Assembly: GCA_965205385.1 (NCBI GenBank)
Contig: CBDBGS010000008.1
Location: forward strand, 745,752 to 809,751
DNA length: 64,000 nucleotides
Source of the DNA: Dehalococcoidia bacterium
GTDB taxonomy: Bacteria; Chloroflexota; Dehalococcoidia; Lucifugimonadales; UBA3495
Direction of reading: 5' to 3'
Made by a program: the position numbers and the translations under genes. Below, one piece after another: positions 33,056-49,845 of the stretch; the first letter of the stretch is position 1, and every line of letters begins with the position of its first letter. The notes beneath the pieces were generated by a model. The model saw nothing but the letters and a program-made list of their open reading frames with translations, was not told the DNA's origin and did not search any database.

Positions 33056-33130
33056 TGGTCGGGGCGGGCAGACTCGAACTGCCGACCTCCTGGTCCCAAA
33101 CCAGGCGCCCTACCGCTGGGCCACGCCCCG
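33056..33130 (-). tRNA. tRNA-Pro (anticodon UGG), CCA encoded
   Basis: The minus strand folds as acceptor CGGGGCG with D, anticodon and T arms, with anticodon loop TTTGGGA and T arm GGCAG-TTCGAGT-CTGCC. The 3-prime end is CGCCCCG-A-CCA. Full 75-nt cloverleaf. Confidence 0.9.
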
Positions 33131-33315
33131 TCCAGATGGTGGATCAGGGGAAAGAGTTGAATCAGCTCTGTCCCCGACCCAATTAAGTTTACTGTAGATG
33201 AAGCCGATGCACTACCATAGGACCCTGCTCTTAATCATGCTTGTGATGGTTTCAGGTGTTATCCTCGAGACAGTTCAGAGTTTCGAAGTCTGACGGATGT
33301 GGGCAGAATGCAAAT

Positions 33316-33552
33316 ATGGCAGTGCAGATTACGATAAAAAACGTCCCAGAAGCAGTCCGCGATGGACTCAAGGCCCGCGCCGCGTCCGAGGGCAAGTCCA
33401 TGCAAGAGTTATTGCTCGGGGAACTCGAACTCATTGCGTCGCAGGTTTCCATGAAGACGTGGCTCAAAGAAGTCCGGGAGTTAAAAAAGGCTCGCGGCAT
33501 CGACGTGCCCACTTGGAAGATATTAGAGGCTCGAGACCACGACCGGAAGTGA
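33316..33552 (+). CDS. vapB: type II antitoxin, ribbon-helix-helix (VapB/FitA-like)
   Basis: MAVQITIKNVPEAVRDGLKARAASEGKSMQELLLGEL is an Arc/MetJ-type RHH. I chose the internal ATG of the 33256 track ORF. Its stop overlaps the toxin start (GTGA). Confidence 0.7.
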   Translation: MAVQITIKNVPEAVRDGLKARAASEGKSMQELLLGELELIASQVSMKTWLKEVRELKKARGIDVPTWKILEARDHDRK

Positions 33553-33962
33553 CGTCGGTCGTTGATGCGTCAGTGTTCGTCTCCGCACTAGTTGACCCTG
33601 GTCCGGAAGGCCAATGGTCGGAGATTGCCATGATCAGTGATGATCTGGCCGGTCCCGAATTGGCCTTGGCGGAAGCCTGCAATCTTTTGCGTCGATTAGA
33701 GCAATCCATCCTAATCACGCGTTCAGAGGCTGACAGGCTTCATGAACAGCTGCTTAGGGTCGAGATCAGGCTCTTTGGGTATGGGCCCTATGCCGAGAGA
33801 ATATGGCAGCTACGTTCGAATTTGACCTGCTATGACGCCTGGTACGTTGCCCTAGCCGAGGACCTAGACTGCCCTCTGATCACACTTGACCTCAGGCTCA
33901 GCCGCTCCACCGGACCGAGCGGCGAGTTTGTCACGCCACCGCCTAGGCAGACAAGCGAATAA
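33549..33962 (+). CDS. vapC: type II toxin VapC (PIN domain RNase)
   Basis: A GTG start at 33549 gives ~137 aa. The acidic PIN residues sit in VVDASVF, LALAEACN, CYDAWYVALAE and LITLD. Confidence 0.7.
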   Translation: MTSVVDASVFVSALVDPGPEGQWSEIAMISDDLAGPELALAEACNLLRRLEQSILITRSEADRLHEQLLRVEIRLFGYGPYAERIWQLRSNLTCYDAWYVALAEDLDCPLITLDLRLSRSTGPSGEFVTPPPRQTSE

Positions 33963-34054: not shown

Positions 34055-34077
34055 TACCAAAGGAGTGAATCGCACTC
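34055..34077. repeat. degenerate direct repeat of the tRNA-Arg 3-prime end (putative distal att site)
   Basis: TACCAAAGGAGTGAATCGCACTC matches TACCCCCGGAGAGAATCGAACTC at 49950-49972 at 18 of 23 positions, in the same orientation. Confidence 0.45.
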
Positions 34078-34106
34078 CTTCCTACTTATAGCTATCAGGG
34101 CCGTAT

Positions 34107-34129
34107 ATTACCACACCGTTTACCACACC
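34107..34129 (+). promoter_or_regulatory. two arm-type repeats (ATTACCACACC / TTTACCACACC)
   Basis: The same motif occurs 5 times at 49838-49900, in the same orientation. These are putative integrase or excisionase arm-binding sites. Confidence 0.5.
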
Positions 34130-34253
34130 AAGGCCGCTTGTCTAGGCTTACCTATTCCCTTTTGCGTTGGTAAAATAGGTTCAATCTTGTAAGGGATGGT
34201 GAACGATGCAATGGAAGCTGAGTACATAACCACATTGGAAATAGCCAAGATGC

Positions 34254-34404
34254 TAAACCAATACCAAGGTGGGATGTGCATTTCGGTGGTCTTGACGAGG
34301 ACCGAAAGGAATCCATTGTTCCTCATATCACCTCAAGGCCCCAACTGGGTAGGCACCGACAGTGCCGTATGGCGATATGTACATTTCACCTTGGCTTTAG
34401 TTTA
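34254..34404. mobile_element. MITE-like element (~147 bp) flanked by TA
   Basis: The terminal inverted repeats TAAACCAATACCAAGGTGGGATGTGCAT and ATGTACATTTCACCTTGGCTTTAGTTTA match at 22 of 28 positions. It has no coding capacity and sits inside the xis reading frame. Confidence 0.55.
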
Positions 34405-34408
34405 GTAC

Positions 34409-35065
34409 TCAGTCAACCGTAAAATCGGAAGGGTAAAGGCGGTGAAGTTTGGTTCGTGCGTCCCGGGTGTTGAACCGCCAGTTGATGGTGGCTCTGGCGG
34501 CGTTGCGCTCCGTGACCAGAGCATCGACTTCCCGCCGGAGGGCCTCCTCGCCGGAGAGCCGCTGCTTCAGGCAGGAGCGGGACAGGACGCTGAACTCGAT
34601 CTCCGCCATATTCAGCCAACTCCCGTGCTTGGGGGTGTAATGAAACTCCAGCCGCCTGGCTATCCGCCGGGCTTCCTCAGCCGGGAAAGTCTCGTACAGC
34701 GATGCCCGGCGATGGGTGTTCAGATTGTCCAGGACAACCCTTACCACCTCGGCTTCCGGGTAGGCTTCATCCGCCAGCCAGCGCATCCGGCGGGCGAAGT
34801 CTTGCATCGTGCGTCGCTCCGTGACCGCCACCTCTCGCCAACCTGCCAAGGGCTCGCAGGCCAAGAACAGGTTGCGGGTACCCTCCCGCCGGTATTCGTA
34901 GTCCTGCCGCAGCGGAAGTCCCGGCCGGGGCGGCAGAGCGGGCCGGGTCTCCGCCAACAACTGGGTGGATGTCTCGTCAAAACAGACCACCGGACGTTGG
35001 GGATCATAGGGTTCGGCGTAGAGATCCAGGACATCCTCCATGTTAGCCACAAATTCCGCGCTCAC
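34409..35065 (-). CDS. IS630 transposase, DDE catalytic part (orfB)
   Basis: 218 aa with the DDE_3 pattern (VVCFDETS...VLDNLNTHR...WLNMAEIEF). The -1 frame upstream reads ...KKNALKPWQKKEWCIPKVSAEF, the usual contiguous IS630 sequence. Confidence 0.8.
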   Translation of the reverse strand: MSAEFVANMEDVLDLYAEPYDPQRPVVCFDETSTQLLAETRPALPPRPGLPLRQDYEYRREGTRNLFLACEPLAGWREVAVTERRTMQDFARRMRWLADEAYPEAEVVRVVLDNLNTHRRASLYETFPAEEARRIARRLEFHYTPKHGSWLNMAEIEFSVLSRSCLKQRLSGEEALRREVDALVTERNAARATINWRFNTRDARTKLHRLYPSDFTVD

Positions 35066-35580
35066 CTTGGGAATGCACCACTCCTTCTTCTGCCACGGCT
35101 TGAGGGCGTTTTTTTGAGACGCTGGCGCACCCCCTCGTGGGACATGGAGGGCGTCAGCCCCAACTCGACCACCTTCCCGGCCAACAGACGCAGGGTCCAG
35201 TGGTCATGCCCTTCCGGCGGCGGGCTGCAGGCCAAGGCGATCAGGTGGGCTTCGCCACGGTCGTCCAACTTCCGGGGCCGGTTGGCCTGGGGACGGTCCT
35301 GCAAAACCCCCTCCAACCCTTCTTCGGCAAAGCGCTGCTTGACCCGGTATACGGTGCTCAGGGCCACATCCAAAGCTTCGGCCACTTGGGGCGCCGCCCA
35401 ACCGTCGTCGCTCTTTAGGAGAATCTGCGCCCTGGCGGTCACTCGGGCTGAGCTTTTCCCAACCCGGATCAGTCGCTGGAGTTCTTCCCGTTGTTCCTGT
35501 GCCAGCCCCACTGCGTACTTGTCCCTCATCATGACGCCACCCTCCACCATCAACACTTCCCACCAGGCAGGATAGCTCAA
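35062..35580 (-). CDS. IS630 transposase, N-terminal HTH part (orfA)
   Basis: 172 aa with HTH and winged-helix segments (LSTVYRVKQRFAEEGLEGVLQDRP). It ends shortly after an A7 run. Confidence 0.8.
   Translation of the reverse strand: MSYPAWWEVLMVEGGVMMRDKYAVGLAQEQREELQRLIRVGKSSARVTARAQILLKSDDGWAAPQVAEALDVALSTVYRVKQRFAEEGLEGVLQDRPQANRPRKLDDRGEAHLIALACSPPPEGHDHWTLRLLAGKVVELGLTPSMSHEGVRQRLKKTPSSRGRRRSGAFPR
35109..35115 (-). other. A7 slippery run joining transposase orfA and orfB (-1 frameshift site or frameshift mutation)
   Basis: The minus strand reads CTC AAA AAA ACG. A -1 slip after the second AAA yields L-K-K-N-A-L-K-P-W, the canonical IS630 junction. Confidence 0.5.
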
Positions 35581-36363
35581 TTGGCCCCTTTCTTAAATAA
35601 ATACCAAAACCAAGTTGACTGACTACTAGGGATTAGCCGTCAAACTATCTACAACTGGGGGAATCGGGGCAAGCTGCCGCCGTGCTACATCCTGGGGCGG
35701 CGGACTCGGCGATGGAACCGCAAGGAATTTATGGAATGGCTCGAAGCACGGCGGGTTAGGCGGGAATATGACGAACAGCGAACCTAAAACAATCTGTTGG
35801 CGGACGGGAAGAAATCGCGCCGGGACGCAACCGGCGCGAAATCAACCGTGGAAGTGTCTACCAATGCGAGACAGGTCCATACCAAGTCTAGCCTAACGTC
35901 AATCCCGCTACCGCCTACGCCGGCACGTTTCCGGTGGGCGCTCATGGTCAACGGGATAGGCGTTAGGTATGACGTTCGCGGCCTACGCAATCAAGCACAG
36001 CTACCCGGCAAGGAAGAATGGACAGACATTACGGATGGCGTAGCAGCCAAGATACGGGAAACCCTGGCAACCGTGCCATTCCCGATACGCAACCGGGACG
36101 GGTTTATAGAGGATGCGGGCGGGATACTCCAAACCAATACCCAACACTTCCATGAATTGATGGTCAACGCCTGCGCGTTCAATGCGGCGGACCCTTTGAT
36201 CGAATACTTCGACGATCTACCGCGTTGGGACGGTCTGCCGCGCCTTGGAGCGTGGCTTTTCCATTGTTTCGACGTTGCCGACGAATCCCTAGAGTTATCG
36301 GAGTGGGCGGGAACGTTCGTGTTCCTCGGTTCGGTATGGCGGGCAAAGCAACCCGGCGTCAAG

Positions 36364-37777
36364 CTAGTACTACAGTCGCAGATTAAAAACGGATAGAATT
36401 GGGGCAATCAGCGGGTGGTGAGGTGAGGCTGTGGTTGTTGTGAGGGATGAGGTTGCGGAAGTGGCTCGGTGGGCCGAGGGCATCGAGCGGGTACACGAGT
36501 GCATCGGTGGACGGTTCCGGCGTCCGGAGCCGCGGCGGCGGGCGCTGGACTATCTGAAGGGGTTGCTCAGCCCGGTGGAGCGCAAGAACGGCTGGCAATT
36601 GGCGGAGCGGGCAGGCGACGCCACTCCCGATGGGGTGCAGCGCCTGTTGTACAACTACCAGTGGGACGCGGACCTGGTTCGCGATGACTTGAGGAGCTAC
36701 GTGATCGAGCGTCTGGCCGACGCTGCGGCAGTTCTGGCGGTGGATGAAACCGGATTCCTCAAGAAAGGAGACAAGTCGGTTGGGGTGCAGCGTCAGTACA
36801 GCGGCACGGCGACGGATCGAGAACAGTCAGATTGGCGTATTCTTGGCCTATGCCAGTGCCAGGGGGAGGACGCTGCTGGACCGGGAGTTGTACCTGCCCC
36901 AGGTGTGGGCGGAGGACTTGGAGCGCCGGCGGGAGGCCGGTGTGCCGGAGAGTGTCGGCTTTCGGACCAAGCCGCAACTGGCGCAGCTGATGCTGGAGCG
37001 GGCGGTTGAGTCGGGAGTGCCCTTCGGCTGGGTGGCCGGGGACGAGGTCTACGGCAACGACCGCAACCTGCGGCTGTGGCTGGAGCGAGAGGGCGTTCCC
37101 CACGTGCTGGCCATCAAACGCAGCGAGAAGCTATGGGCTTTGACGGACAGGGGGCCGCGACAGGTGAGGGCCGACCGTCTGGCCTCAGGGGTTGAGGAAT
37201 GCGCTTGGGTGAGGTGCAGCGCCGGGGACGGAGCCAAGGGACCACGGATCTACGACTGGGCCACTGTGGAAATACGTCCCCTGAGGGAGCCTGGCAAGGG
37301 CTATTGGCTGCTGGCCCGGCGCAGTCTGGCCAACCCGGGGGAGCTGGCCTACTACGTCTGTTACGGCCCGGCGGGAACGACCCTGGAGGAACTGGCGAGG
37401 GTGGCCGGGACCCGGTGGGCCATAGAGGAGTGCTTCGAGGAGGCCAAGGGACAGGTGGGGCTGGACCAGTATGAAGTGCGGAGGTGGGACGGCTGGTACC
37501 GGCACATCACGTTGGCGATGTTGGCCCACGCGTATCTGTCCGTGATCAAGCATCAGGCCATGGAACAGGGAGAAAGGGGGGCTACTACGGCCCGGATGAA
37601 GAGCTGATTCCCATGACAGCGCCGGAAGTGCGCCGACTGCTCACCCGCCTCGTATGGACGGAGAACCAACTGCCTGATTTCATCCTGTATTGGTCGTGGT
37701 GGAGACGACGCCACCAAGCCAGAGCCCGGCGTTGCCATTACCAACGACGACTTTCTAATCTGCGACTGTAGTACTAG
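36364..37777 (+). mobile_element. IS701-family-like insertion sequence with CTAG target duplication
   Basis: The ~25-bp terminal inverted repeats are TAGTACTACAGTCGCAGATTAAAAA and the reverse complement of TTTCTAATCTGCGACTGTAGTACTA. CTAG is present at both junctions (36364-36367, 37774-37777). Confidence 0.8.
36431..37607 (+). pseudogene. IS701-family DDE transposase, frameshifted
   Basis: ORF 36431-37009 ends its meaningful part at ...[27 protein letters not shown] 36744-37607 carries on with [15 protein letters not shown]...WAIEECFEEAKGQVGLDQYEVR in another frame. The junction at about 36810 lacks 2 nt (or has 1 extra) relative to the usual QYSGTAGRIEN. Confidence 0.7.
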
Positions 37778-38564
37778 ACGAAATGCCAGTAATCACCGGG
37801 AAGGGCGGTATCGGCAAGTCTACCGCCTTGCGGTGTGTCCTACCGCCATCGCTCCAGTACACATTCACGGATGGGCTGAACCTAGCGGCCAACCCGAAGG
37901 AACGTATCGAAGCGTTACAGGGGCGCTCCATCGTGGAAGCGGCGGAGATGCAAGGCGCAAGGCGAGCCGATATTGAATCTCTCAAGGCGTTCCTATCGCG
38001 TACCGACGATGGCAGCACGCGGCTATCCTACCGCCACAACCCGGAACCAATGCCCAGGCGGTGCATAATCGTAGGCACAGCCGACCGGCCCGACCCGCTA
38101 CCCGATGATCCCAACCTACGCCGATTCGTTCCGATCACACTCACAGGCGGAAGCCCGCAAGACGTTATGGAATTTCTGGACGAATGGCGGGACCAACTCT
38201 GGGCCGAGGCACTCTACCTTTACGATCACGGCGAGAGCGCACGGCTACCAGATGAATTGAAAGCACTACAGAAGGAAGCCACCGAGTCCGCACGTTCCCG
38301 CGATTCCGTGCTTGAAGATTTGATAGAGCGATGGCTAGAGGATGGACGTGACCTATTCACCATTGAAGCGGTAGCCACAGGCATAGGACTAACAGACATG
38401 GGTAAGTCCGCTAGGCTATCGCCCTATGACACCAAGCGCATATCGGGAGTGCTACGGCAAAAGGGCTTTGCATCAGTGTCCAAGCGCATCGACGGCAAGA
38501 CAGTACGCCGATGGGCGTTACTACCCGTTACAGATTCAGACCAATTCTAGGCACGATTGACCAA

Positions 38565-38733
38565 GTGTAACGGGTGTAACGGGTTGTAACGGCTAACTTT
38601 GGAGGGAAAGCAAGGAAATAATCCGTTGTGGGATATAGACGTGGGTAGGGCATAAATAAATAGTTAATAGCCCTACAGTATAAGACTCAAATCATCTCAA
38701 GAATTACCCGTTACACCCGTTACACCCGTTACA
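38565..38733. promoter_or_regulatory. iteron-flanked AT-rich region (putative island replication origin or operator)
   Basis: Three tandem (G/T)TGTAACGG(G/C) units occupy 38565-38593. Three perfect tandem CCCGTTACA units (the reverse complement) occupy 38707-38733. They flank ~110 bp of AT-rich DNA containing a GTAGGGC...GCCCTAC hairpin. One more CCCGTTACA copy lies at 38524-38532. The region sits directly 3-prime of the virE-like gene. Confidence 0.55.
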
Positions 38734-38754
38734 CACTGAATGGGAGGATGAACA

Positions 38755-39120
38755 ATGGCAACACATCTAATCTACGGCAAAGCCACGAACCGTATCAGAG
38801 GTGCGTCGGAAATTCACACATATTGCGGTGAGGTAATAGCCGAAGATCACCCAGATTTCGCCGCTTTGCGTGATTACGAGCCGGATCACACAGCCACCTT
38901 TTTCGCGACCATCTTCAACGACATACCTGACCTGTGTGAAGCGTGCCACCAAAAGGTTTTATCGCCGAGGATATACCACATTGACTCGGATAACGGACTG
39001 ACATATTGTGGATTGGATGCGGCCGAGGTTTGGACTGGCGGCCCGTTCATCTCCCCCTTATGCCAACCATGCCGCAATGGCTTGATTTCCGAACATCCGC
39101 TGTTTGGTGCTGCCAACTAG
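38755..39120 (+). CDS. hypothetical Cys-rich protein (island)
   Basis: 121 aa preceded by a GGGAGGA RBS. It has CxxC-like pairs (CEACHQK, CQPCRNG). No family assignment. Confidence 0.45.
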   Translation: MATHLIYGKATNRIRGASEIHTYCGEVIAEDHPDFAALRDYEPDHTATFFATIFNDIPDLCEACHQKVLSPRIYHIDSDNGLTYCGLDAAEVWTGGPFISPLCQPCRNGLISEHPLFGAAN

Positions 39121-39212
39121 CCCGGTTATGGCACCGCCGAAAATCCTTGGAGGGGCGTACCAGCGTTGGGCGGAGTGACGAACTACGTAGATACAAGAAA
39201 GAGGGAGGCAAG

Positions 39213-39572
39213 ATGAACAGACAAGGCAGCGATATGACCATTGGGCATGCTTTTGCGGCCCGATGGCTTGTCAGGAAATATGCTGAATACAAGAGCAATC
39301 CCAGAATGCAGCAGCGACAACCTGAACTTCCTCAGCCTGACGAGCTTGCCCAGCGAATTGCTGATGCTGTCGATTCCCATGTAGAACAGAAAATTCTTGA
39401 GCTTCGCATCAAGTTGCACGCTGTTGCTGTAGAGGTGGCGGATGGGACAGAGGGTTCCAAAGACCAAGTTGTGATCAGTTCGGATGAATTACTACAAGAC
39501 CGAGCTTTGGTACAGGTGGCCCACGAGTGCTTAAACACAACCTTAAGCGCGATGCACAAATTTCCCGTCTAA
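39213..39572 (+). CDS. hypothetical protein, positional candidate for a small terminase subunit
   Basis: This uses the internal ATG of track ORF 39006, preceded by AGAGGGAGG. It is 119 aa and sits directly upstream of, and overlapping, TerL. The call is positional only. Confidence 0.35.
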   Translation: MNRQGSDMTIGHAFAARWLVRKYAEYKSNPRMQQRQPELPQPDELAQRIADAVDSHVEQKILELRIKLHAVAVEVADGTEGSKDQVVISSDELLQDRALVQVAHECLNTTLSAMHKFPV

Positions 39573-41068
39573 TAGCCAGTCTTGAGTCCGCACCAGTAGG
39601 AGACGGCGATCTGGTGGGGCAACCGTTCAAGTGTCTGCCCTACCAGCGGCGTTTCCTTCGCGGTGCGTTCAAGCCGGGTGTGCTTCGGGCTGGCCTGAGT
39701 CTGGCCCGTGGTGGCGGTAAGAGTGGCTTGGCGTCGGCCTTGGCCCTGGACGCCATCCGGCCCGCCGGGGTGCTGCATCGCCAAGGCTTCGAGGTGGTGC
39801 TGATAGCGTCATCATTCCAGCAGGCCAGGATTATTTTTGAGGCGGTGCGGACTTCCCTGGAGCTAATGGGCGAAGATGGCGACTACCGCATCCGCGACCA
39901 GCAGAACCTTGCGGACATTCAGCACCGGGAGACAAAGGCGCGGTTGCGGGTTGCCGGTGCTGACAACCGGAGGGCGCACGGCTGGCGCGTCAATCTCGTG
40001 ATCGGCGATGAACCTTCACAGTGGGGTCCAAGGGGCGAGCTACTGGCGGCTGCTATCCGCACGGCATTGGGCAAGCGGAAGGATGCGCGGGCGCTGTTCA
40101 TAGGTACCCGGCCAGCGAGTGATGCTCACTTTTTCGCCAGGTTGCTTGAGGAAGATGACCCTTCCGTTTTCTCACTTGTCTATGCCGCCGATATGGATGG
40201 CAATCCTTTCAGCGCGAAGACCTGGCGCAAGGCCAACCCCGCCCTGAGCTACGGGTTGCCAGACATGGAAGTGTTGCGGGCTGAGGCGCGGCTTGCGAAG
40301 CGCGATCCTGCGGAGTTGGCGACGTTCCGCAGTCTCCGGTTGAATCAAGGCACCAGTGAAGTCGAATCTCGGATGCTCATTGACGCAATGACCTGGCGAG
40401 AGGTGGAAACGGAGGAACTGCCGCCACGCGAAGGACCGGTGAGTTTCGGTGTCGATCTTGGTGGAACTGCTGCCTTCAGTGCTTGTGCCGCCTACTGGCC
40501 GCGTTCGGGAAGGCTTGAAGGCTTCGTAGCCTGTGGCAATGATCCCGTATTGCCGGAAAGGGCGCTGGCCGATGGTGTCAGTGGCGTTTATGAAGCGATG
40601 CGTGACGCCGGTGAACTGGTGCAGCTTGGCGGGCGCGTGGTGCCCGTTGGCCCGTTCCTAGTGGAGTCGGTGCTGCGGTACGGGAAGCCGCAAGCGGTGG
40701 CGGCTGACCGTTGGCGATCCGGTGAACTTGAAGACGGTGTGCGCGAGGCGAGGTTGAGTCTGCCTGAACCAACATGGCGCGGGCAGGGGTGGCGTGATGG
40801 TGGCGTTGACGTGCGGCTGTTCCGGTCTGCGGTGCTGGAGGGGAAGGTGGCGGCACCTGTAAGCCTAGCCATGCGCGCGGCTCTTGCTGAGGCTAGGACG
40901 GTGGCGGACAACAGTGCCAACGAGAAGCTGGCGAAGTCCGGCGAAGGGCAACATAGGCGGCGCGGTAGAGATGATCTGGCAGCCGCTATCGTGCTGGCCG
41001 TTGCTGAGGGAACACGGCGTGAGGCGTCCAGGGAAGTCAAGAAGTGGCGTTATCGGGGCGTGGCGTGA
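39527..41068 (+). CDS. terL: phage terminase large subunit (Terminase_1-like)
   Basis: 513 aa with Walker A LARGGGKSG and Walker B LVIGDEPSQW. It has the LPYQRRFLRG N-terminal block and a C-terminal RNaseH-like nuclease half. The exact start is uncertain. Confidence 0.75.
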   Translation: MLKHNLKRDAQISRLIASLESAPVGDGDLVGQPFKCLPYQRRFLRGAFKPGVLRAGLSLARGGGKSGLASALALDAIRPAGVLHRQGFEVVLIASSFQQARIIFEAVRTSLELMGEDGDYRIRDQQNLADIQHRETKARLRVAGADNRRAHGWRVNLVIGDEPSQWGPRGELLAAAIRTALGKRKDARALFIGTRPASDAHFFARLLEEDDPSVFSLVYAADMDGNPFSAKTWRKANPALSYGLPDMEVLRAEARLAKRDPAELATFRSLRLNQGTSEVESRMLIDAMTWREVETEELPPREGPVSFGVDLGGTAAFSACAAYWPRSGRLEGFVACGNDPVLPERALADGVSGVYEAMRDAGELVQLGGRVVPVGPFLVESVLRYGKPQAVAADRWRSGELEDGVREARLSLPEPTWRGQGWRDGGVDVRLFRSAVLEGKVAAPVSLAMRAALAEARTVADNSANEKLAKSGEGQHRRRGRDDLAAAIVLAVAEGTRREASREVKKWRYRGVA

Positions 41069-41352
41069 GCTGGCGAAAGGGACCGCCGATCAACCGGAGA
41101 CGGTGGGCGATAGTCCGCCGCCTTGTTTTTCAGCGCGACGGCTATAGATGCGTGGACTGCTCAAAGCCTGGACGCCTCGAATGTGACCATGTGGTGCCGC
41201 TTCACGTCAACCCTACCCAAGACCCTTACGACCTGGACGGGCTGAGAACACTTTGCCGGTCTTGCCATATCAGACTCACGGCGGAACAGAACCGCAAACC
41301 CAACCCTGGGCGTGACGCATGGCGAAAATTGATTGCGGAAATCGTAGTGTGA
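41065..41352 (+). CDS. HNH endonuclease
   Basis: A GTG start overlaps the TerL stop (GTGA). The sequence VFQRDGYRCVDCSKPGRLECDHVVPL...LRTLCRSCHI is the HNH motif. Confidence 0.8.
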   Translation: MSWRKGPPINRRRWAIVRRLVFQRDGYRCVDCSKPGRLECDHVVPLHVNPTQDPYDLDGLRTLCRSCHIRLTAEQNRKPNPGRDAWRKLIAEIVV

Positions 41353-41380
41353 TAAAATGTAGATAGTTAGTATTACATCT

Positions 41381-42673
41381 ATGGATAGACCTGAGAGAAG
41401 AGAAATGACAGCAAGCCAACGCATTACCCTTCGTTTGTCCGCAGTCCGCAGCCGCTTGAACGAAATCGCCGGGGTAGAGGGTGACGACTTCACACCCGAA
41501 ATCAGGTCTGAGGCGGAAGCACTCCAACGGGAATACTCAGACCTGGAAACCCGCTACCGCTCCGCCACCATTGCCGAGTCCGCCGAAACCGAAACCCGCC
41601 AACACGACGAACCCGACCGGGAACTGCGGGAACGCATCGAACTGCGGGAACGGGCCACGCTCACCAACTACCTCCTGTCCGCTGCCCAGGGCCGGATGCC
41701 CCACGGCGCGGAACTGGAGCTACAGCAGGCGGCGGGCGTATCGGGAATCCCCGTTGAGCTTTTCGAGGTGCGCCAGCGCGAAACCCGCGCCGATGCGCCC
41801 ACAGGTTCACCCAGCACCGTGGGCGTCAACGTGGACCCGATTCGCCCGATGATCTATGCCCGTGCGGTGCTGCCCCGGTTGGGAGTGGCCATGCCTCGCG
41901 TGGAATCCGGCACCTACGCCACCATGACCATCACGGCGGACCTCAGTGCCGGGGCAATGGCGGCTGGGGCTGCCCGTGAGTCAACGGCGGCGACACTGAC
42001 GCCCAAGACCACCACCGCGCACCGGGTAAGCGGAAGGCTTTCCATCCGCATTGAGGACGTGGCCACCGTAGGCGTGGGCAACTTCGAATCCAGCTTGAGG
42101 CAGAACCTGACGCTTGTAATGTCTGACGAATTGGACAAGCTGGGTCTGACGGGTGATAACCAGGCTCCCAACCCGCAAGGACTGTTGCCCCAACTGACGG
42201 ACCCGACCGACCCGACCGATGCCGTCAACTTCGATGCCTTTGTCGAGGCGGTGGCCGGTGGAATCGACGGCGGGCCGTGGGCCGAATCCATGACGGCGGT
42301 GATGCTGCTGGTGAACCCGGAGACGCTGCGGAAGGCTGAAACCACCTTCCAGAGCGCCACCAACTACAAGGGTGAACTGAGCGCAGCCGCCTACATCCGG
42401 GCCAACAGCGCGGGTTTCTTTTCCAGCCGCTGGATGCCCGTCACGGCCAGCACAATAGCCCAAGCAATCCGCTACCGGCGCGGCACCATGGGCCTGGACG
42501 GGGTGGACGCCATGCGGACGGCGGTATGCCCGATGTGGAACGAAGTCAGCATTGACGACATATACTCCGATTCTGCCAGCGGTATCCGCCATTTCACGCT
42601 CCACAACCTGATAGGCGACGTGCTGATTGAGCAAACCGACGCCTATGAGCGGATAGACCTGAAGTTGGCATAG
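41381..42673 (+). CDS. HK97-fold major capsid protein with an N-terminal coiled scaffold (delta)-like domain
   Basis: 430 aa. The first ~130 aa are charged and helical. The rest has Phage_capsid-like blocks, and the gene is followed by a prohead protease. Confidence 0.7.
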   Translation: MDRPERREMTASQRITLRLSAVRSRLNEIAGVEGDDFTPEIRSEAEALQREYSDLETRYRSATIAESAETETRQHDEPDRELRERIELRERATLTNYLLSAAQGRMPHGAELELQQAAGVSGIPVELFEVRQRETRADAPTGSPSTVGVNVDPIRPMIYARAVLPRLGVAMPRVESGTYATMTITADLSAGAMAAGAARESTAATLTPKTTTAHRVSGRLSIRIEDVATVGVGNFESSLRQNLTLVMSDELDKLGLTGDNQAPNPQGLLPQLTDPTDPTDAVNFDAFVEAVAGGIDGGPWAESMTAVMLLVNPETLRKAETTFQSATNYKGELSAAAYIRANSAGFFSSRWMPVTASTIAQAIRYRRGTMGLDGVDAMRTAVCPMWNEVSIDDIYSDSASGIRHFTLHNLIGDVLIEQTDAYERIDLKLA

Positions 42674-42682
42674 AGGCCAGCG

Positions 42683-43339
42683 ATGGACTACCCGATATTT
42701 GACGGTGAGCTTGCTGTTGAAACTCGCCAAGATGGGGAGGGGCGGACTATCCGCGCCAGCTTCCCGTATAACCGCGTGGCCACCATCTCCTCGACCGGGC
42801 GCACAAGAAAAGAGGTGTTCCGCAGCGGTAGTCTTTCATGGCAAGTCCGCGAGTTTGAAAAGCTCCAACAGCAACTATCGGACACCATATCCGGGACGAT
42901 TTCCCGGTTTCAGCGTGACGCGGTGGAGGATGCCCTGGAAAAGCGAAATACGTTCCTGTTGGTGGGCCACGACTACAACCGGGCAATTGCCGACATGCGA
43001 TCCGGGACGTTGGCCGTGACGCATACCGATGATGCGGTCCTGCTACGCGCCGACATACCGGCTGAGGGGAAAGCGCCTAGCTGGGTAGAGGACGCCGTTA
43101 AGGGAATCAACGGCGGGCAAGTCCGGGGCGTGAGTCCTGGATTCCAAGTCCCGGCGCGACGTGGCGGGGAACGGCTGATACCGGAAGAGGGAGACGGCGG
43201 CGCGATGATGCGCGAGATCACGGACGCCGTAGCTTTCGAGTATTCGTTGCTGGCCCGCCCCGCGTACAGTGGCACCACCGTAGACGCCCGCGCCGATGAT
43301 CCCGCGCTGGTGCCACCTCGGAGACGGGTATGGCTCTGA
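42683..43339 (+). CDS. HK97-family prohead (maturation) protease, S78/U35 type
   Basis: 218 aa. LLVGHDYNRAIA...GQVRGVSPGF...EYSLLARPAY fits the prohead protease His/Ser block pattern. Confidence 0.7.
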   Translation: MDYPIFDGELAVETRQDGEGRTIRASFPYNRVATISSTGRTRKEVFRSGSLSWQVREFEKLQQQLSDTISGTISRFQRDAVEDALEKRNTFLLVGHDYNRAIADMRSGTLAVTHTDDAVLLRADIPAEGKAPSWVEDAVKGINGGQVRGVSPGFQVPARRGGERLIPEEGDGGAMMREITDAVAFEYSLLARPAYSGTTVDARADDPALVPPRRRVWL

Positions 43340-45279
43340 TAACCGCAGACGAATTCAGGGCTGCCCTTCGGCTTGGTGACGCACCGGAAGAAGTGGCCGA
43401 GGCCAACAGAATCTACACCTATGCTGTCGAGGCGGTAGAGAAGTACGCCTCCGGTGCCAGTGAGGCGGCGAAGTCTGAGGCGACCATCCGGCTAGGCTCC
43501 TACCTCTACGACCAACCCACTTCCAGCCGTGGCGACCACTACGCCGCAGCGGGACGAAACTCCGGTGCATGGGCCATCCTTGCGCCATACAGAATACGCC
43601 GGGCCGGGACCATAGGCGAGGCGGTCCAGATTGCCCGTGAGAGCGGTTCGCCAGGCAACCCCGTTATCGGCGTGGACGTTACAGGCGATATCCTGACCGT
43701 GACGTTTGCCGATGGGAGTATGGAAACCCACACTCTACCCGACACCGGCGTTGACCAAGTGGCGCGGGATAGCGCAGCGATGGCGGAAGCGACGGCGGCA
43801 GGGGCCGTTACGGACGCGGCCACCAACGCCTTGGCAGTTAGCGCGGCGCAGAGTACGGCGGATGGCAAGATAGACGAAGCCGATGCAAACATCCTGATAG
43901 CGGCGCACGCGGCCATAGTTACGGCGCACCATACGCCTCCCACTGGAGGCGCACCTACCTATACCCTGTTGGGTAGGGCATCTCTCACCACTAACCATTT
44001 TCTGTTCAGTGTGGAGCATGGAAACGTTCTCGCCGAAGAACTGATAAACGGCGAGGCGGAATCCCTTTTGCTTACGTTGACGGACTTCAACCGTCACTAC
44101 CATATATGGGAAATTCCGCTCCGGTGGCGCGACTACACCTACGGCCCTAACTACGAGTTTTACAAGGAATATGTCAACAATTCGACGGGCGCGGTTTCGG
44201 GCATGAACCTGGCGGTGGAGCGTAACACGTCCACAGCCGACACAACGGCCATTCTTAGCATGTTGACAACGGCGGTATTCGACACTGGCACACAATGCGC
44301 GGTGTACTCGGTAACTGGCGCTGGCGGAAGCGGTGGCGGCGGTGGCGGCGGGATGTTCTCTGGCACAGACCAACTAGCCAGAGACGCGGCGGCAACGGCG
44401 CAAGGTGAGATAGACACGCACGAGGCCAGCACTCATAACACCGACATAACGGCGCAAAGTACGGCGCTGAACGCACGGCAGACGGCGGAACAGGCGCAAA
44501 CCACGATTGAGACTCACGAGGCCAGCACCCATAACCACGACGCCACGGCGCGTACAGCGGCGGGGGCGGCGCAAAGTGAAATAGACGTGCATGAGGCGTC
44601 AACCCATAACCACGATGCCGGGGCACGTACAGCGGCGGCGAACGCACAGATAACGGCAGACACGGCGCAATCGGCTGCATCGGGCGCGCAATCCGATGCT
44701 GATACCGCGCAGACTACCGCCGGGCAAGCGCAAGCGACGGCGACGGCGGCGCAGACTGATATTGACAATCACGAGGCGTCAACCCACAACACCGATGCCG
44801 GGGCGCGCACGGCGGCGGCAAATGCTCAATCCGCTATCGAAGATCACGGACGCACAACCCATAACACCGATACCGTTGCCAGGAACGCGGCGGCGGCGGC
44901 GCAAACGGCGGCGGAAGCGGCGGCGGGCGGGCGGCCTACCGTGCTGTATGAAGCGGCAACGGCGGCGATTGGCGGGAGTACGGGGTTGATAACTGGCAAC
45001 GTGGTTTGCCCGGAAACTGGCGAGCTTGAATTCTATTTCGAGGGATTGACCGGCTCTCGGCAGGGCGGCGTTGCCTACGCTCGGATACCGGCGGCAAGGA
45101 TACGGGGCGCGGTGTCTGCGCTTACGACTGCCTACAACAATGACAATGAAAACGTGCTGGTAATCGCGCACGGGGCAAACCGTGGAATTGGGATAGCAGT
45201 ACAAGCGACCACCAACTATCTAATGCTGAACGCGCAGGCGGCGGGAAACCATTACATTCGCATATCGCACATAGCCTAG
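43330..45279 (+). CDS. gp6-like head-tail connector domain fused to a 550-aa repeat-containing extension
   Basis: The N-terminal ~100 aa (ITADEFRAALRLGD...IRLGSYLYDQ...ILAPYRIRR) fit Phage_connect_1. A globular segment and a poly-Gly tract (GAGGSGGGGGGG) follow. Then come five I(D/E)xHEASTHN(T/H)D...AR(T/N)AAxxAQ repeats and a C-terminal domain. The stop TAG is part of the CTAG target of the IS. Confidence 0.6.
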   Translation: MALITADEFRAALRLGDAPEEVAEANRIYTYAVEAVEKYASGASEAAKSEATIRLGSYLYDQPTSSRGDHYAAAGRNSGAWAILAPYRIRRAGTIGEAVQIARESGSPGNPVIGVDVTGDILTVTFADGSMETHTLPDTGVDQVARDSAAMAEATAAGAVTDAATNALAVSAAQSTADGKIDEADANILIAAHAAIVTAHHTPPTGGAPTYTLLGRASLTTNHFLFSVEHGNVLAEELINGEAESLLLTLTDFNRHYHIWEIPLRWRDYTYGPNYEFYKEYVNNSTGAVSGMNLAVERNTSTADTTAILSMLTTAVFDTGTQCAVYSVTGAGGSGGGGGGGMFSGTDQLARDAAATAQGEIDTHEASTHNTDITAQSTALNARQTAEQAQTTIETHEASTHNHDATARTAAGAAQSEIDVHEASTHNHDAGARTAAANAQITADTAQSAASGAQSDADTAQTTAGQAQATATAAQTDIDNHEASTHNTDAGARTAAANAQSAIEDHGRTTHNTDTVARNAAAAAQTAAEAAAGGRPTVLYEAATAAIGGSTGLITGNVVCPETGELEFYFEGLTGSRQGGVAYARIPAARIRGAVSALTTAYNNDNENVLVIAHGANRGIGIAVQATTNYLMLNAQAAGNHYIRISHIA

Positions 45280-47069
45280 AAACCGGGCCGAAAAGTCCTG
45301 GTTGGGTAGGGGGATTTGGGCAATAAAGCCGACGTGAGCAGGATCACGGACCACAGTTGTCCGAGCCGGACCGCGCAGAAATTGGCCGCAGCATGGGCGA
45401 CAACAAAGGGGACAATATTGAGGACGACGCTGCGGCCTGTTGCGCCGCCACCGGTACGGCCCGACCGCCCGAGTTTCCCGGCCACCAGGGTCAGGTTGGC
45501 TACCGTGGCAGCCAGATACAGCTGGAATCGCGTCTTGACCCTGCCGAAATAGCGGGACTGGCGAATGCCCAACTGGACCAGCCGGGCCAACCGGTGTTCC
45601 ACCACCACTCGGCGCACTCGATATTCGTCATAATGAGTGCTTTGCTGCAACGCTCGGGCCTGCTGCAGCAGGGCTTCCTGGGGATGGATCAGCACCCGCC
45701 GCCCCCTACTCCCCTTGGCTGCGATGCACTGGGACCGCAGTGGACATGTCCGACATTCGGCCCCGTCGAACTGGAAGGCCTGCAAGCGGTGGACCCGCCC
45801 TGTGCGACCCGTCCGCTTTCCCGCCGGCACGATGGTGTGGGTAACCTGTCCGGCGGGACAGGTGCAACTGCCCGCGGCCAGGTCAATATGGAAGTCCTCT
45901 TTCGGAAAGTGCTTCCGGTCGGGCCGTCCCGGCACTCTGGCCACCAACCGGCGTCCCGCATCGGCGAATGCCTGCCTGGTATCGCCATCCCCATAGGCGG
46001 CGTCGCCCATGGCTTCCTCCACCGGCACACCGGTGTTGGCCTCGCTCTGCTCCACCAATTCCAGCGATCCCAGGTTGTCCGGAGCGTTGCCGGGCAATAC
46101 CTCCACCGCGGTGATCAGCTGGGAGTCGGTGTCCACCACGATGGCCGCCTTGTGTCCGTCGAACCGTCTACTGCTGCTCTTGTGGCCGTGGCGCATCTCC
46201 GGGTCATGCACCGACATCATCCGGTCCCGGCTCACCCCGTCCTTGAGATTCACTCCGTCATCGGTCCGCTCCACGTCCTGGAGCAGCAACTGCCCCAGCA
46301 GTTCCGCCGCCGCCACTATCTGCTGCCGCTCAGCGCTATCCTCCCCCAATTCCCTCTGCGCCTGCCGCGACAACTCCAACAACCGGTCGGCGTCTCTCAC
46401 AATCTCGGCCAGCAGGGCCTGCCGCGCCCGTTTGTCGCTCCAGTCGATGGCCGACTCACCCTTCACGCTGGAACCCAGGTACCGCTCATATCCCCGGGCC
46501 TTGGCCCATTCTTTGACGCTGGACTTCTCCACTGCCGCCAGCGCCCGCAACAGCTTGACGATCCCGTCCGCCAACAGATTGTAGGTGTCCTTCACCGCGC
46601 CACGGCCCAGGATGTTGGTCGTGTCCAACGCCACCCGCATCCCGCGCCCTTTCAGATACCCCGACTCCCGGGCCAAACGCAGGCTGGACTCGAACACCTC
46701 CCGCACCTTGCCGTGCAGTATCAGCTGGGCGCGGAACACCTGCAGCGTGCTCTTGGCGAAGGGACGGTCTTCCACCTCAATCCCCAAGGCCACCTTCCAC
46801 CGGATGTCGAAGTCGGCCCGGGCCTTGGCCTCAGCGTCGCTCACCTTGTCGTGGGACTGGAGCAGGAGCGCCGTCGCCAGCAGGCTGGGCGGCACGCTGT
46901 CCCGGCCGTTGTCGGCGCAGTAGAACCCGGCGAAATCGGGGTCCCGGAACAGGCGGCCCCGCAGCGAGGCCAGCAGACCGTAGAAGGTGTCCCGCCCCAC
47001 GTGGTCCAGATACAACCGGTCTGCTTCCCAGAGGCCCCTCTGGTCCGACCGCTCTCCCAGCATGCTCAA
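45276..47069 (-). CDS. IS1182-family transposase (DUF772 N-terminal + DDE domain)
   Basis: 597 aa. GRDSVPPSLLATALLLQSHDKVSDAEAKARADFDIRWKVALGI is the DUF772 block. It also has the zinc-ribbon-like CTCPAGQ...CRTCPLRSQC and a C-terminal DDE region. Confidence 0.8.
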   Translation of the reverse strand: MSMLGERSDQRGLWEADRLYLDHVGRDTFYGLLASLRGRLFRDPDFAGFYCADNGRDSVPPSLLATALLLQSHDKVSDAEAKARADFDIRWKVALGIEVEDRPFAKSTLQVFRAQLILHGKVREVFESSLRLARESGYLKGRGMRVALDTTNILGRGAVKDTYNLLADGIVKLLRALAAVEKSSVKEWAKARGYERYLGSSVKGESAIDWSDKRARQALLAEIVRDADRLLELSRQAQRELGEDSAERQQIVAAAELLGQLLLQDVERTDDGVNLKDGVSRDRMMSVHDPEMRHGHKSSSRRFDGHKAAIVVDTDSQLITAVEVLPGNAPDNLGSLELVEQSEANTGVPVEEAMGDAAYGDGDTRQAFADAGRRLVARVPGRPDRKHFPKEDFHIDLAAGSCTCPAGQVTHTIVPAGKRTGRTGRVHRLQAFQFDGAECRTCPLRSQCIAAKGSRGRRVLIHPQEALLQQARALQQSTHYDEYRVRRVVVEHRLARLVQLGIRQSRYFGRVKTRFQLYLAATVANLTLVAGKLGRSGRTGGGATGRSVVLNIVPFVVAHAAANFCAVRLGQLWSVILLTSALLPKSPYPTRTFRPGF

Positions 47070-47142
47070 GCCCTCGCTATTTCTTGATGGCTCAAGTATA
47101 GCTGACCACCCGGCTGAAGCCAGTTTCCGGCCACGTTTCTAG
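45276..47142 (-). mobile_element. IS1182/IS5-superfamily insertion sequence in the intergenic CTAG
   Basis: The imperfect terminal inverted repeats are CTAGAAACCGGGCCGAAAAGT (45276-) and the reverse complement of CAGTTTCCGGCCACGTTTCTAG (-47142). CTAG is at both ends. Removing the element restores ...ISHIA-TAG followed by an AGGGG RBS and the next gene's ATG. Confidence 0.7.
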
Positions 47143-47151
47143 AGGGGTGTT

Positions 47152-47496
47152 ATGCCAGCCGACCGCCTAATCACCGTCAACCTCACAGGGGAAGGTATGC
47201 GGAACCAATACGGGGAATACGTCGAGGGCGAAGTTACGCCTATACGGACGTGGACAAGGCGGCGTGACAAGACACAAGAGGATATTGAATCTGAGGGGGG
47301 CGTCCTAACGAGTGTGCAACGTACTTGGCGCATTAGGTGGGACAGCAGGATAGCGGACGTTCCAGTGGTGCGCATCGAGGTGGTGGATGGGCCGTACACC
47401 TTCAACGTACTGAATCAAGTTGAGGTCACCGAGCAACGAGGCGGGCCAGACCTGCGGCGCAGGTTCATAGACATTGAAGGAGTGTACACCAGCTAA
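47152..47496 (+). CDS. phage head closure / head-tail adaptor protein
   Basis: 114 aa. Size, position and the TWRIRWDSRI...Y.F.V block are typical of the Phage_H_T_join family. Confidence 0.55.
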   Translation: MPADRLITVNLTGEGMRNQYGEYVEGEVTPIRTWTRRRDKTQEDIESEGGVLTSVQRTWRIRWDSRIADVPVVRIEVVDGPYTFNVLNQVEVTEQRGGPDLRRRFIDIEGVYTS

Positions 47497-48557
47497 TGCG
47501 TTTCCCATGGCAAAAGCGTGAAACAAGGCAAAGCGGCGGTGACTTCTCCGATGCCGTTGTCAGACTGATTGAAGCTCAGGCGGCGGGAACTGCTGCGGAC
47601 GCTTCCAGCACGGCGGCGGTGGAGGCGGCGTCTGGTGCGCTTTCACGGGCGTTTGCCATTGCCGAGGTAGTTGGAGACGGTTGGGTACAGGAAGCCGTGT
47701 CTCCGGCGTTCCTGGCGCAAGTGGGGCGTGATCTGGTTAGGTCGGGCGACTCATTGCATGTCATCGAAATGGACGGCAAGGGCAACGTGACCCTGTTGCC
47801 GTGTTCTTCATGGCACTTCGAGGGTGACGCTCACCCGGACACCTGGACCGTGCGGGCCACCTACTACGGGCCTAGCAGCAGCAGCACTCGGCACCTGCCC
47901 TTTAGCGGCGTGGTGTTCGTGAAGTGGGGCAGCACACCCGGTCAACCCTACACCGGCACGGGACCGCTATCGTGGGCGCATACCACCGCCAGACTTCAAT
48001 CCGAAACCGAACGCAGCCTTACCGACGAGGTACAAGGTCCATTGGCGCAAATCATAGCCATACCGCAAGATGGAGGTGACGGCGGCGAAGATGATCCGCT
48101 GGCGGAACTGAAAGCCGACATTCGGACGGCAAGAGGCCGCGCCCTGTTGGTGGAGACGGCGGCGGCGGGTTGGGGTGAGGGCAGAGGTGCCGCACCACAA
48201 CGCGACTGGCAAGCAAGCCGCCTTGGGCCGATGCCGCCGGAGAGCATGGCCACCATACGCAAGGACTCCTTTGGTTCGGTGGTGGCGGCGTGTGGCGCAT
48301 CGCCCGCCCTGTTCGACGACTCCGACGGCACCAGCAAGCGGGAAGCACTGAGACAGTGGCACATGGGAACGGTGCGGCCATTGGCGCGGCTGTTGGAAAC
48401 GGAGCTTACCGCCAAGCTGGAAACGCCGGTCAAGCTGACATTCGACGCCTACTCCCTGGACATCGCGGGGAGGGCGCAGGCGTTCAAGGCTTTCGTGGGC
48501 GGCGGGATGGACGTTAACGAGGCGTTGGTCAAGACGGGGTTGATGGACCCGGACTAA
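47496..48557 (+). CDS. HK97-family phage portal protein
   Basis: 353 aa. The start overlaps the previous stop (TAATG). It has Phage_portal-like central and C-terminal blocks (...ESMATIRKDSFGSVVAACGASPALF..., LETELTAKL). Confidence 0.65.
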   Translation: MRFPWQKRETRQSGGDFSDAVVRLIEAQAAGTAADASSTAAVEAASGALSRAFAIAEVVGDGWVQEAVSPAFLAQVGRDLVRSGDSLHVIEMDGKGNVTLLPCSSWHFEGDAHPDTWTVRATYYGPSSSSTRHLPFSGVVFVKWGSTPGQPYTGTGPLSWAHTTARLQSETERSLTDEVQGPLAQIIAIPQDGGDGGEDDPLAELKADIRTARGRALLVETAAAGWGEGRGAAPQRDWQASRLGPMPPESMATIRKDSFGSVVAACGASPALFDDSDGTSKREALRQWHMGTVRPLARLLETELTAKLETPVKLTFDAYSLDIAGRAQAFKAFVGGGMDVNEALVKTGLMDPD

Positions 48558-48587
48558 CCCTTCCTTCTGTAAGCCACGCACAGGCGC

Positions 48588-48630
48588 GAAACTAGGGGCG
48601 GTGGAGCCGAATGCCACCGCCCCTAGTTTT
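48588..48630. terminator. bidirectional Rho-independent terminator between portal and integrase
   Basis: A 13-bp perfect stem CTAGGGGCGGTGG / CCACCGCCCCTAG has AAA upstream and TTTT downstream. It lies between convergent genes. Confidence 0.75.
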
Positions 48631-48651
48631 CAGACCATGCCTAGCGCCTTA

Positions 48652-49845
48652 TTAGAAGGGCGATTGATCGGGAGCCACCATATCGCCCCACGCTTCCATG
48701 ATCGGACGCCGCTGGTCGATTAGGTCTGACCGAAAGTACGCCGCTTCCACCGCGCCTAGCGGATTATGACTAAGGCAATACTCAATCGCTACGCGGTCGT
48801 ATGTTCCTTGTTCCGCTGCCCAATCTCGGAAGCTGGAGCGGAAGCCGTGCGGGTGTGCGCCGATATTGTTGACGCGGGCAAACTTGGATAGGCAATTTTC
48901 CGATGGTGCCTTGCCGAGCTTCGGGAACACCAAACCCGTACTATCCGCCAACTTCCGCTTGGCTTCCCGGAGAACATCGACGGCGGCGCGGGATAGTGGC
49001 TTGCGGTGTTCCTTGCAATCCTTGGAGCGGTCCGCCGGGATTGACCATACCCGATGGTCAAGGTCGATTTCTTCCCAACGTGCGCCGCGTGCTTCGGCAG
49101 ACCGTGAAGCGGTCAGAATTAGGAATTCAAAACACAACCGCGTTACGGTCATAGCTTCCGAATCCCGGATGGTGTTGATTGCGTCTGGAACCTGCGAGTA
49201 GTGAAGGGCGGTAAAGTGGCCTTGAATCTTGGGGATTGGCGGCAACGCTGCGCTGATAACTTCGCCAGCGGGATTTACGTCTATGTGACCTTCCGCCATC
49301 GCGTACCGGCAGACCTTGGACATCGCCTGGCGCATCTTCCGGGAGGTTTCAACCTTGGATACCCGGAGTCCCTTTAGGATGCAAATCACGTCCTGGCGGC
49401 TAACTTCGGTGATCGGGATATCGCCAATGACCGGGAGGACGTGCAATTCCATCTGCTGTATCCAAGTCTTACGCGCCTTGTCAGACCGCCAGCGGTTCGC
49501 GTAAACGTCCTGGACCGTGTACGTCAAATCCCGGAAGGTTGGGACGCCTTTGGATTCTTCGGACTGGACGCGAAGTTTGCCAGTGGCCCAAGGATTCCCA
49601 CCACCAGCAACAACTACGCGGTTGGCAAGGGCAAGGTCACGCGCCTTACTGAGCGAAATATCCTTGACGGAGCCGAGACCCTTATCTGTGCGCGTGCCGT
49701 CAACGGTGATTCTCTGGACCCAACTTTTGGAACCGCTAGGCGAGATGTTCAGGTATAGGCCGTTACCATCGCCATATCTTCCCGGTTCTTTTAGACTCTT
49801 TACCTTTGCCGCTACCAGTGCCATTTTGCCCACTCCCTTTACCAC
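48652..49845 (-). CDS. int: tyrosine recombinase, P4-type integrase with DUF4102 arm-binding domain
   Basis: GDGNGLYLNISPSGSKSWVQRI is the DUF4102 block. The catalytic region contains ...TASRSAEARGARWEEID..., HGFRSSFRDWAAE and LSH...AY. The likely true start is the ATG at 49824 (MALVAAKVKSLK). The start is about 105-125 nt from the tRNA 3-prime end. Confidence 0.85.
   Translation of the reverse strand: MVKGVGKMALVAAKVKSLKEPGRYGDGNGLYLNISPSGSKSWVQRITVDGTRTDKGLGSVKDISLSKARDLALANRVVVAGGGNPWATGKLRVQSEESKGVPTFRDLTYTVQDVYANRWRSDKARKTWIQQMELHVLPVIGDIPITEVSRQDVICILKGLRVSKVETSRKMRQAMSKVCRYAMAEGHIDVNPAGEVISAALPPIPKIQGHFTALHYSQVPDAINTIRDSEAMTVTRLCFEFLILTASRSAEARGARWEEIDLDHRVWSIPADRSKDCKEHRKPLSRAAVDVLREAKRKLADSTGLVFPKLGKAPSENCLSKFARVNNIGAHPHGFRSSFRDWAAEQGTYDRVAIEYCLSHNPLGAVEAAYFRSDLIDQRRPIMEAWGDMVAPDQSPF

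Follow-up and report, generated by a model that had tools for sequence, protein, structure and literature searches.

The Rep proteins of SaPIs are self-loading initiator-helicases whose winged-helix C-terminal domain binds iterons of 5-7 nt, and these iterons are situated immediately downstream of rep, in opposite orientations around an AT-rich region (PMC9371898, bioRxiv 10.64898/2026.10.17.759575). In SaPI5, the origin starts within the last rep codons and contains tandem 7-mers separated by AA (L2-L4), giving a period of 9 bp (bioRxiv 10.64898/2026.10.17.759575). For PICIs, the origin has been defined by two iteron sets flanking an AT-rich stretch after the initiator gene, and the function of the EcCICFT073 origin was shown by plasmid maintenance tests (PMC6092414).

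The organization found at 38524-38733 of the window (i.e., the whole 64-kb stretch of DNA that was analysed) agrees in its main traits with these systems and, as judged from sequence and by analogy, very probably represents a PICI-type replication origin that is now orphaned through a broken initiator. As in the SaPI Rep1 and PriRep5 origins, it adjoins the 3' end of the initiator gene, the last codons of which already belong to it; opposed short iterons, with at least two copies per side, surround an AT-rich region, and the initiator is an SF3 protein with a (here predicted) C-terminal winged helix. The 9-bp tandem period is shared with iterons L2-L4 of SaPI5. Despite this general similarity, there are several differences: the iteron of the window is nine bases long and has GTTAC as its core, whereas SaPI iterons are 5-7-mers; the origin measures about 210 bp as opposed to about 300 bp in SaPIs; it is accompanied by neither a separate nor a fused primase gene, and its initiator is disrupted by an IS; the host belongs to Chloroflexota, not to Firmicutes; and the island carries capsid, portal, protease, and TerL genes of its own. 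The pri-rep-ori of Gram-negative PICIs (EcCICFT073) likewise has an AT-rich stretch between two iteron sets just behind the initiator gene, and these elements are also integrase-bearing satellite islands with the order replication module, origin, and packaging/interference genes. Their initiators, however, are primase-replicase fusions, and in EcCICFT073 function is known from plasmid maintenance, whereas the origin of the window is predicted from sequence.

In satellite phage P4, the alpha protein is a primase-helicase that carries its own primase domain and recognises short octamer repeats at the P4 origin through its C-terminal domain; two cis regions at separate places, ori and crr, are required by P4. 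The present locus would resemble P4 in being a satellite replicon in which the C-terminal domain of a helicase meets short repeats at its own origin, whereas it differs in its single compact dyad origin and in the lack of a primase. Classical iteron-plasmid origins (RepA, pi, TrfA) consist of direct repeats of 17-22 bp about one helical turn apart, and their WH1-WH2 Rep recruits DnaB. This class was rejected for the present locus: the repeats are 9 bp long with a 9-bp period and form a dyad, and the adjacent gene encodes an SF3 helicase, not a protein of the RepA type.

The features of the origin and of its immediate surroundings are the following:

38524-38532, plus strand: outlying iteron CCCGTTACA, within the last codons of the VapE ORF, forming an inverted pair with the left set
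38545-38557: conserved non-iteron box TTCTAGGCACGAT (TTTAGCTACGAAT in relatives), between the outlying iteron and the left set, from the alignment of relatives
38548-38550, plus strand: stop codon TAG of VapE
38566-38593, minus strand: left iteron set, three reverse copies (TGTAACGGG, TGTAACGGG, TGTAACGGC) at steps of 9 and 10 bp
38566-38574 and 38575-38583, minus strand: exact reverse complements of CCCGTTACA within the left set
38585-38593, minus strand: third copy of the left set, GCCGTTACA, with one mismatch and after a 10-bp step
38593-38604: conserved inner box CTAACTTTGGAG, imperfect dyad partner of CTCAAGAATTA at 38696-38706
38594-38706: AT-rich core, presumed DNA-unwinding element, GC 0.39 versus about 0.6 in the flanks
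38707-38715, 38716-38724, and 38725-38733, plus strand: right iteron set, three perfect tandem copies of CCCGTTACA with a 9-bp period
38742-38747, plus strand: RBS GGGAGG
38755-39120, plus strand: first ORF of the packaging block, 121 aa, without family match
39006-39572: second small ORF downstream, 188 aa, without family match

All six exact copies of CCCGTTACA present in the 64-kb window are situated within these 210 bp, together with one copy carrying a single mismatch; elsewhere in the window, matches with one mismatch occur at chance level (13 found versus 12.4 expected), and no further occurrence of the tandem pair CCCGTTACACCCGTTACA was found across the whole 4.5-Mb genome. A repeat search detected arms of 20 nt, perfectly complementary and 121-130 nt apart. 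The original prediction had described a tandem left set, a triple perfect tandem at 38707-38733 as its reverse complement, an extra copy inside the 3' end of the virE-like ORF, and an AT-rich core with a hairpin of 7-bp stem, each of which is indeed present (the left set at 38566-38593 with two exact copies and one with a mismatch, the extra copy at 38524-38532, and the hairpin at 38645-38676).

Concerning the core, the least stable 40-mer of the neighbourhood starts at 38652-38653 and spans about 38652-38692 (dG -42.9), and only 0.01% of the 40-mers of the window are equally unstable. The hairpin (stem GTAGGGC at 38645-38651 and GCCCTAC at 38670-38676, with an A/T loop of 18 nt) folds no better than shuffled sequence (z = -1.4), such that no role is assigned to it, and no Rfam match was obtained for 38300-39000. 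The two boxes TTCTAGGCACGAT and CTAACTTTGGAG are unique in the window. Boxes TTTAGCTACGAAT/TTCTAGGCACGAT and CTAACTTTGGAG are kept in the Chloroflexota-type island origins (loci L170-L176 and L009) despite differing iterons; since the boxes are conserved where the iterons differ, they point to a further conserved binding factor, or to a site that serves packaging or a host factor. In many relatives, the cores of the origins contain alternating purine-pyrimidine, GC-rich palindromes (CGCGCGCTACGCGCGTATATGCGCGCG; ACGCACATACGCACGCATATATACACGCATA) instead of plain AT-rich DNA (L009 at 6905-6955, L170 at about 9405-9425, the cores of L174 and L176, and, downstream of the iterons, L011 and L102); the core of the window itself has no such GC-rich alternating palindrome.

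The gene preceding the origin is split into two parts:

35797-36367, plus strand: 5' part of the VapE/Rep1-like gene, N-terminal domain up to ...QPGVKL, with partial matches to Pfam VapE-like_dom and to the PHROG 'DNA helicase'
36368-37773, plus strand: IS with DDE_5 transposase, IS701-like, 1406 bp, with 18-bp terminal inverted repeats TACTACAGTCGCAGATTA
37778-38550, plus strand: 3' part of the VapE/Rep1-like gene, SF3 ATPase core and C-terminal winged helix, 255 aa

The 5' part aligns with the N-terminal half of full-length homologs, and the 3' part matches Pfam PF05272 (E=5.7e-35). A profile built from 71 homologs yielded a single match in the PDB, chain A of 7PDS (E=2.4e-31), i.e., SaPI1 Rep1 bound to DNA (PMC9371898). 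The 255-aa C-terminal fragment was modelled by AlphaFold with a mean pLDDT of 80.5, and residues ~173-246 of the model form three helices and a beta-hairpin (pLDDT 84-91), for which a winged-helix domain is predicted. In a Foldseek search of the PDB, the best matches were again chains of 7PDS (E=6e-10), and the NrS-1 SF3 helicase came next. Homology of the VapE of the window to SaPI1 Rep1 is thus detectable both in sequence and in the predicted fold, and by prediction the protein is an initiator of the SF3/MCM hexameric-helicase type with a C-terminal winged helix.

The IS is flanked by a target duplication (CTAG at 36364-36367 and 37774-37777), and its conceptual removal restores the junction ...VKL-DEMPV... 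(conserved KLDEMPV) and a protein of 447 aa; the interruption of the virE-like gene, as originally predicted, is hence borne out by the 1406-bp element with its 18-bp inverted repeats, by the duplication, and by the restored frame. Because this IS is present in seven near-identical copies (97-100% identity) in the same genome, its insertion into vapE was probably recent. The other copies align over 1408-1409 bp as compared with 1406 bp here, a difference that may explain why the transposase is frameshifted in this copy; a relative of the IS with 73-77% identity is present in about a dozen further copies in the genome. No second copy of vapE was found in the host genome, and no recognisable primase is encoded by the island.

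The island itself has the following boundaries:

About 34055-50021: satellite-like island, about 16 kb including insertions, at a tRNA-Arg of a Chloroflexota (Dehalococcoidia-related) genome
34055-34077: att copy, a degenerate tRNA 3' end (18/23 match)
48652-49845, minus strand: tyrosine integrase, beside the tRNA-Arg

Searches of Pfam and PHROGs returned no family for the 121-aa and 188-aa ORFs, and a small terminase was not identified among them; past these ORFs follow TerL, a capsid-like gene, an S78 prohead protease, a long ORF, a second IS, portal, and the integrase. No tail genes were found in the island. As integrase and att, TerL, capsid-like, protease, and portal genes are present and tail genes absent, the element looks like an integrative, tail-less, capsid-encoding phage satellite. 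In its gene content it agrees with PICIs and cf-PICIs, which are characterised by an integrase with a specific att site, a replication module, packaging or capsid genes in the absence of tail and lysis genes, and a size of about 10-15 kb; in an IS-free relative (L171) the distance from int to portal amounts to about 10.5 kb. It is similar to cf-PICIs as a small island with HK97-type packaging and capsid genes, integrase, and replication genes but no tail (bioRxiv 10.1101/2025.02.11.637232), whereas cf-PICIs have been described in Proteobacteria and Firmicutes, and the order of the head module in the window differs (TerL, HNH, capsid-like, protease, adaptor fusion, portal).

Three further observations concern the island and its border. 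Repeats of the type TTACCACACC are situated near both island ends (34108-34130 and 49827-49883) and are probably arm-type sites of the integrase, distinct from the origin iterons; the possibility that the origin repeats themselves are such arm-type sites was rejected, given that the arm-like repeats of the island consist of this different word. The 649-aa ORF at 43330-45279 contains five imperfect tandem repeats of 75-96 nt at 44387-44903 (60-79% identical), and a PIN-domain gene (33297-33962) is located between a tRNA-Pro (33056-33130) and the left island end.

The same layout was looked for in relatives drawn from 60 related genomes (three loci), from the GTDB collection (one locus, by a single-protein query), and from metagenome assemblies. 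The VapE stop codon is surrounded by it in eight of the nine relatives examined, whose VapE proteins are 42-71% identical to that of the window and whose repeat words are island-specific. It consists of one or two forward copies, the TTTAGCTACGAAT box (TTCTAGGCACGAT in the window), and two to four reverse copies, followed by the CTAACTTTGGAG box, an AT-rich or palindromic core, and three to four forward copies in tandem. The repeat words are:

Window: ACCCGTTAC
L170 (VapE 70% identical): AGGTGTTAC, the origin word also being written GGTGTTAC
L171 (VapE 65% identical): GCGTTACA
L172: AGGGGTAAC
L173: CCTAACACC
L174: CCTGTTACA
L176: ACGTGTTAC
L009 (VapE 57% identical): GCCACCCT
L008 (VapE 42% identical): GGTTGCCCC

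In L170, L171, L172, and L176, forward copies occur at or just after the stop codon, similar to the outlying iteron of the window, and the hairpin region at the C-terminus of VapE (R-I-D-G-K-x-V-R-R-W in the window) varies in parallel with the words. The islands of L171 and L176 are free of ISs and share the gene order of the window. L170 has kept all of its repeats even though a transposase gene comes next. Iteron architecture beside homologous virE genes, the comparison by which the original prediction was to be judged, is accordingly conserved in these eight relatives, with differing words. In the ninth, L090 (VapE 45% identical, GC 0.70), no clear iteron cluster was found in the GC-rich downstream region. 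Concerning the neighbouring genes, TerL directly follows the origin in the IS-free relatives L009 (6757-7085) and L176 (2797-3132), with no ORF of small-terminase size in between. On L090, a viral contig of 15 kb, the ORF of the terminase large subunit (6318-9257) comprises 979 aa, about twice the normal length, with a central insertion that resembles an intein or a homing-endonuclease-like block, as seen by eye from the translation only.

A further 160 loci with VapE domains of 30-45% identity, mostly within phage primase-helicase fusions of 800 aa, were obtained by scanning viral and metagenome contigs. The region from -40 to +260 around the vapE stop was scored in 134 distinct loci and compared with 3680 control windows and 117 other intergenic gaps. 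At least three copies of an 8-mer were present in 80% of the vapE-stop windows, but in only 3.6% of the controls and 10% of the other intergenic gaps; for at least four copies, the corresponding values are 66%, 0.4%, and 1.7%. The latter difference between vapE stops and intergenic gaps corresponds to an odds ratio of 110 with p=2e-30, a value that overstates the evidence because the loci are not phylogenetically independent, the effect being nevertheless very large. Copies in both orientations were found in 69 of the 88 positive loci, and the vapE-stop region is AT-richer than its own locus in 129 of 134 (GC 0.38 versus 0.50). The gene downstream of vapE is most often an SNF2-like helicase (73 of 145 loci) or a small VRR-NUC-like protein (25 of 145), and a terminase takes this place in just three loci, namely the window, L009, and L090. 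Since terminases are so rare there, the repeats belong to vapE and not to the packaging genes. A simple rule suggests itself: iterons clustered where a VapE-family gene stops mark a candidate origin, and they do so for about two thirds to four fifths of the VapE-carrying phages and satellites sampled.

If the C-terminus of VapE reads the iterons, both should co-vary. Among 7750 locus pairs, the sharing of words correlates with VapE identity to a similar extent for the tail (rho 0.38) and for the core (rho 0.36); the two are not separable, and at fixed core identity the tail identity hardly differs, such that the global correlation does not discriminate, because tail and core both follow phylogeny. 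A replacement comparison was therefore made between near-identical elements with different words, by means of sliding-window DNA identity. The proteins of L011 and L102 are 95-100% identical in almost every block of 40 residues over their first ~720 residues (one block with 87%), whereas the last three blocks are about 90%, 67%, and 0% identical, and the words are GACAACAGT and GGAAACG(C/G), respectively. In L057 and L148, the blocks show 87-100% identity (mostly 95-100%) until the last ~100 residues, with the words AATGTTGC and AATGTTACC, and the same pattern is found in L041 and L040. In all three pairs, DNA identity is about 90-100% through vapE, drops to 25-60% only between about -250 and +150, and then returns to 90-98%; a fourth pair, L126 and L163, is with about 80% DNA identity overall too divergent for a bounded trough. 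Although the words differ, the positions of the repeats and the spacer between the sets are unchanged in the swap pairs. With the divergence limited to this stretch around the stop, the exchanged unit comprises the VapE C-terminal tail and the repeats together, and such joint exchange is what a specificity pair of initiator and origin predicts. The co-variation of iterons and C-terminal domain, proposed earlier as a check, is in this way seen in near-identical phages; these swap pairs are distant gut-phage homologs (30-40% identical), whereas the Chloroflexota clade shows only parallel variation of words and tails.

Another explanation would be that the cluster serves as operator or promoter of the downstream packaging operon, with a transcription factor or Rep as regulator, and plays no role in replication. 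Between the right set and the ATG at 38755 there are 21 nt, which include the RBS, and the same juxtaposition is found in L171, L172, and L174; furthermore, the AT-rich core could hold a promoter. A scan for promoters and terminators, however, yielded no terminator and no promoter-like site on the plus strand, but only a weak sigma-70-like match on the minus strand that overlaps the left set. In L009, L170, L173, and L176, moreover, the last iterons are at least 100 bp away from the next ORF (in L170 that of the transposase), and across the wider family the cluster follows vapE whatever gene comes next. VapE is the only conserved DNA-binding gene that accompanies the repeats, and the repeats co-vary with its tail. 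A purely regulatory function, which the original prediction had offered as its alternative, is therefore improbable and not needed to account for the repeats, the downstream gene being a non-packaging gene in most VapE loci. An additional regulatory role on the ORF 21 nt downstream or on the packaging genes is possible, because the right set abuts the RBS in the window, L171, L172, and L174.

In lambda-type cosB, repeated and partly inverted binding sites adjoin the terminase genes. The layout of the window, with repeats upstream of small ORFs and TerL, resembles this arrangement, and cf-PICIs are known to use HK97-type cos packaging (bioRxiv 10.1101/2025.02.11.637232), such that a cos- or pac-like site bound by the small terminase subunit of the island was also considered. 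It is very improbable: the cluster tracks vapE, with no terminase downstream in 142 of 145 loci; one iteron lies within the vapE ORF; L170 keeps the full set although a transposase has replaced the adjoining packaging genes; and in L009 and L176 no small-terminase ORF is situated between the repeats and TerL. The class of terminase-associated repeats was rejected for the same region, as the cluster follows vapE also in front of SNF2-like, VRR-NUC-like, or transposase genes. A cos site could be located elsewhere in the same intergenic region, e.g., at the conserved boxes. Least probable of all is a relic or chance cluster without present function, such as slippage might produce in AT-rich DNA. 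With its initiator broken and several ISs inserted into the island, the region is probably unused at present in this genome, but the six exact 9-mers in 210 bp with none elsewhere in 64 kb, their precise dyad arrangement, the conservation of orthologous positions in independent islands with different words, and the recency of the IS with its seven near-identical copies argue against it.

That the cluster is the cognate origin of the VapE-like initiator, as originally predicted, is in all likelihood correct, being supported by the homology to Rep1, the predicted winged helix, the conserved layout, and the cassette swaps. By analogy to SaPI Rep1 and PriRep5, the adjacent SF3 helicase of the VapE family would be the origin's own initiator, its C-terminal winged helix reading the 9-bp iterons. 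The left trio of reverse copies and the right trio of forward copies would each receive a hexamer, so that two complexes stand opposed on either side of the core. Melting of the AT-rich core would come next, possibly together with the 33 bp that separate the outlying copy (38524) from the first reverse copy (38566), and the helicases would then load themselves. Since the island encodes no primase, priming for replication would depend on that of the host or of a helper phage. In this genome, the origin is intact in sequence, but it is orphaned, because the initiator is split by the IS and neither a second gene nor another iteron copy exists in the genome, and it is presumably silent at present.

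The island hence appears as a recently disabled replicon, with an intact origin, an IS-split initiator, and no copy in trans. Phage satellites or cf-PICIs in Chloroflexota were not found described in the literature searched, and the present locus would extend the replicon design of SaPIs and PICIs, i.e., a self-loading SF3 helicase with a dyad iteron origin at the 3' end of its gene, to this phylum. [quoted passage not shown] More tentatively, and with considerable doubt, it might be supposed that the winged helix of VapE and the iterons at the stop codon constitute a portable specificity cassette that spans phyla, from phages of gut Firmicutes to islands of Chloroflexota, and that the Chloroflexota origins are in addition set in a conserved TTTAGCTACGAAT/CTAACTTTGGAG scaffold read by a second conserved factor, be it a host protein or the packaging machinery. 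If this were true, replication would be coupled to packaging in a lineage of primase-less, capsid-forming satellites not yet described in Chloroflexota, and a general rule based on sequence would be available for finding origins and for predicting replicon incompatibility wherever a VapE-family gene occurs.
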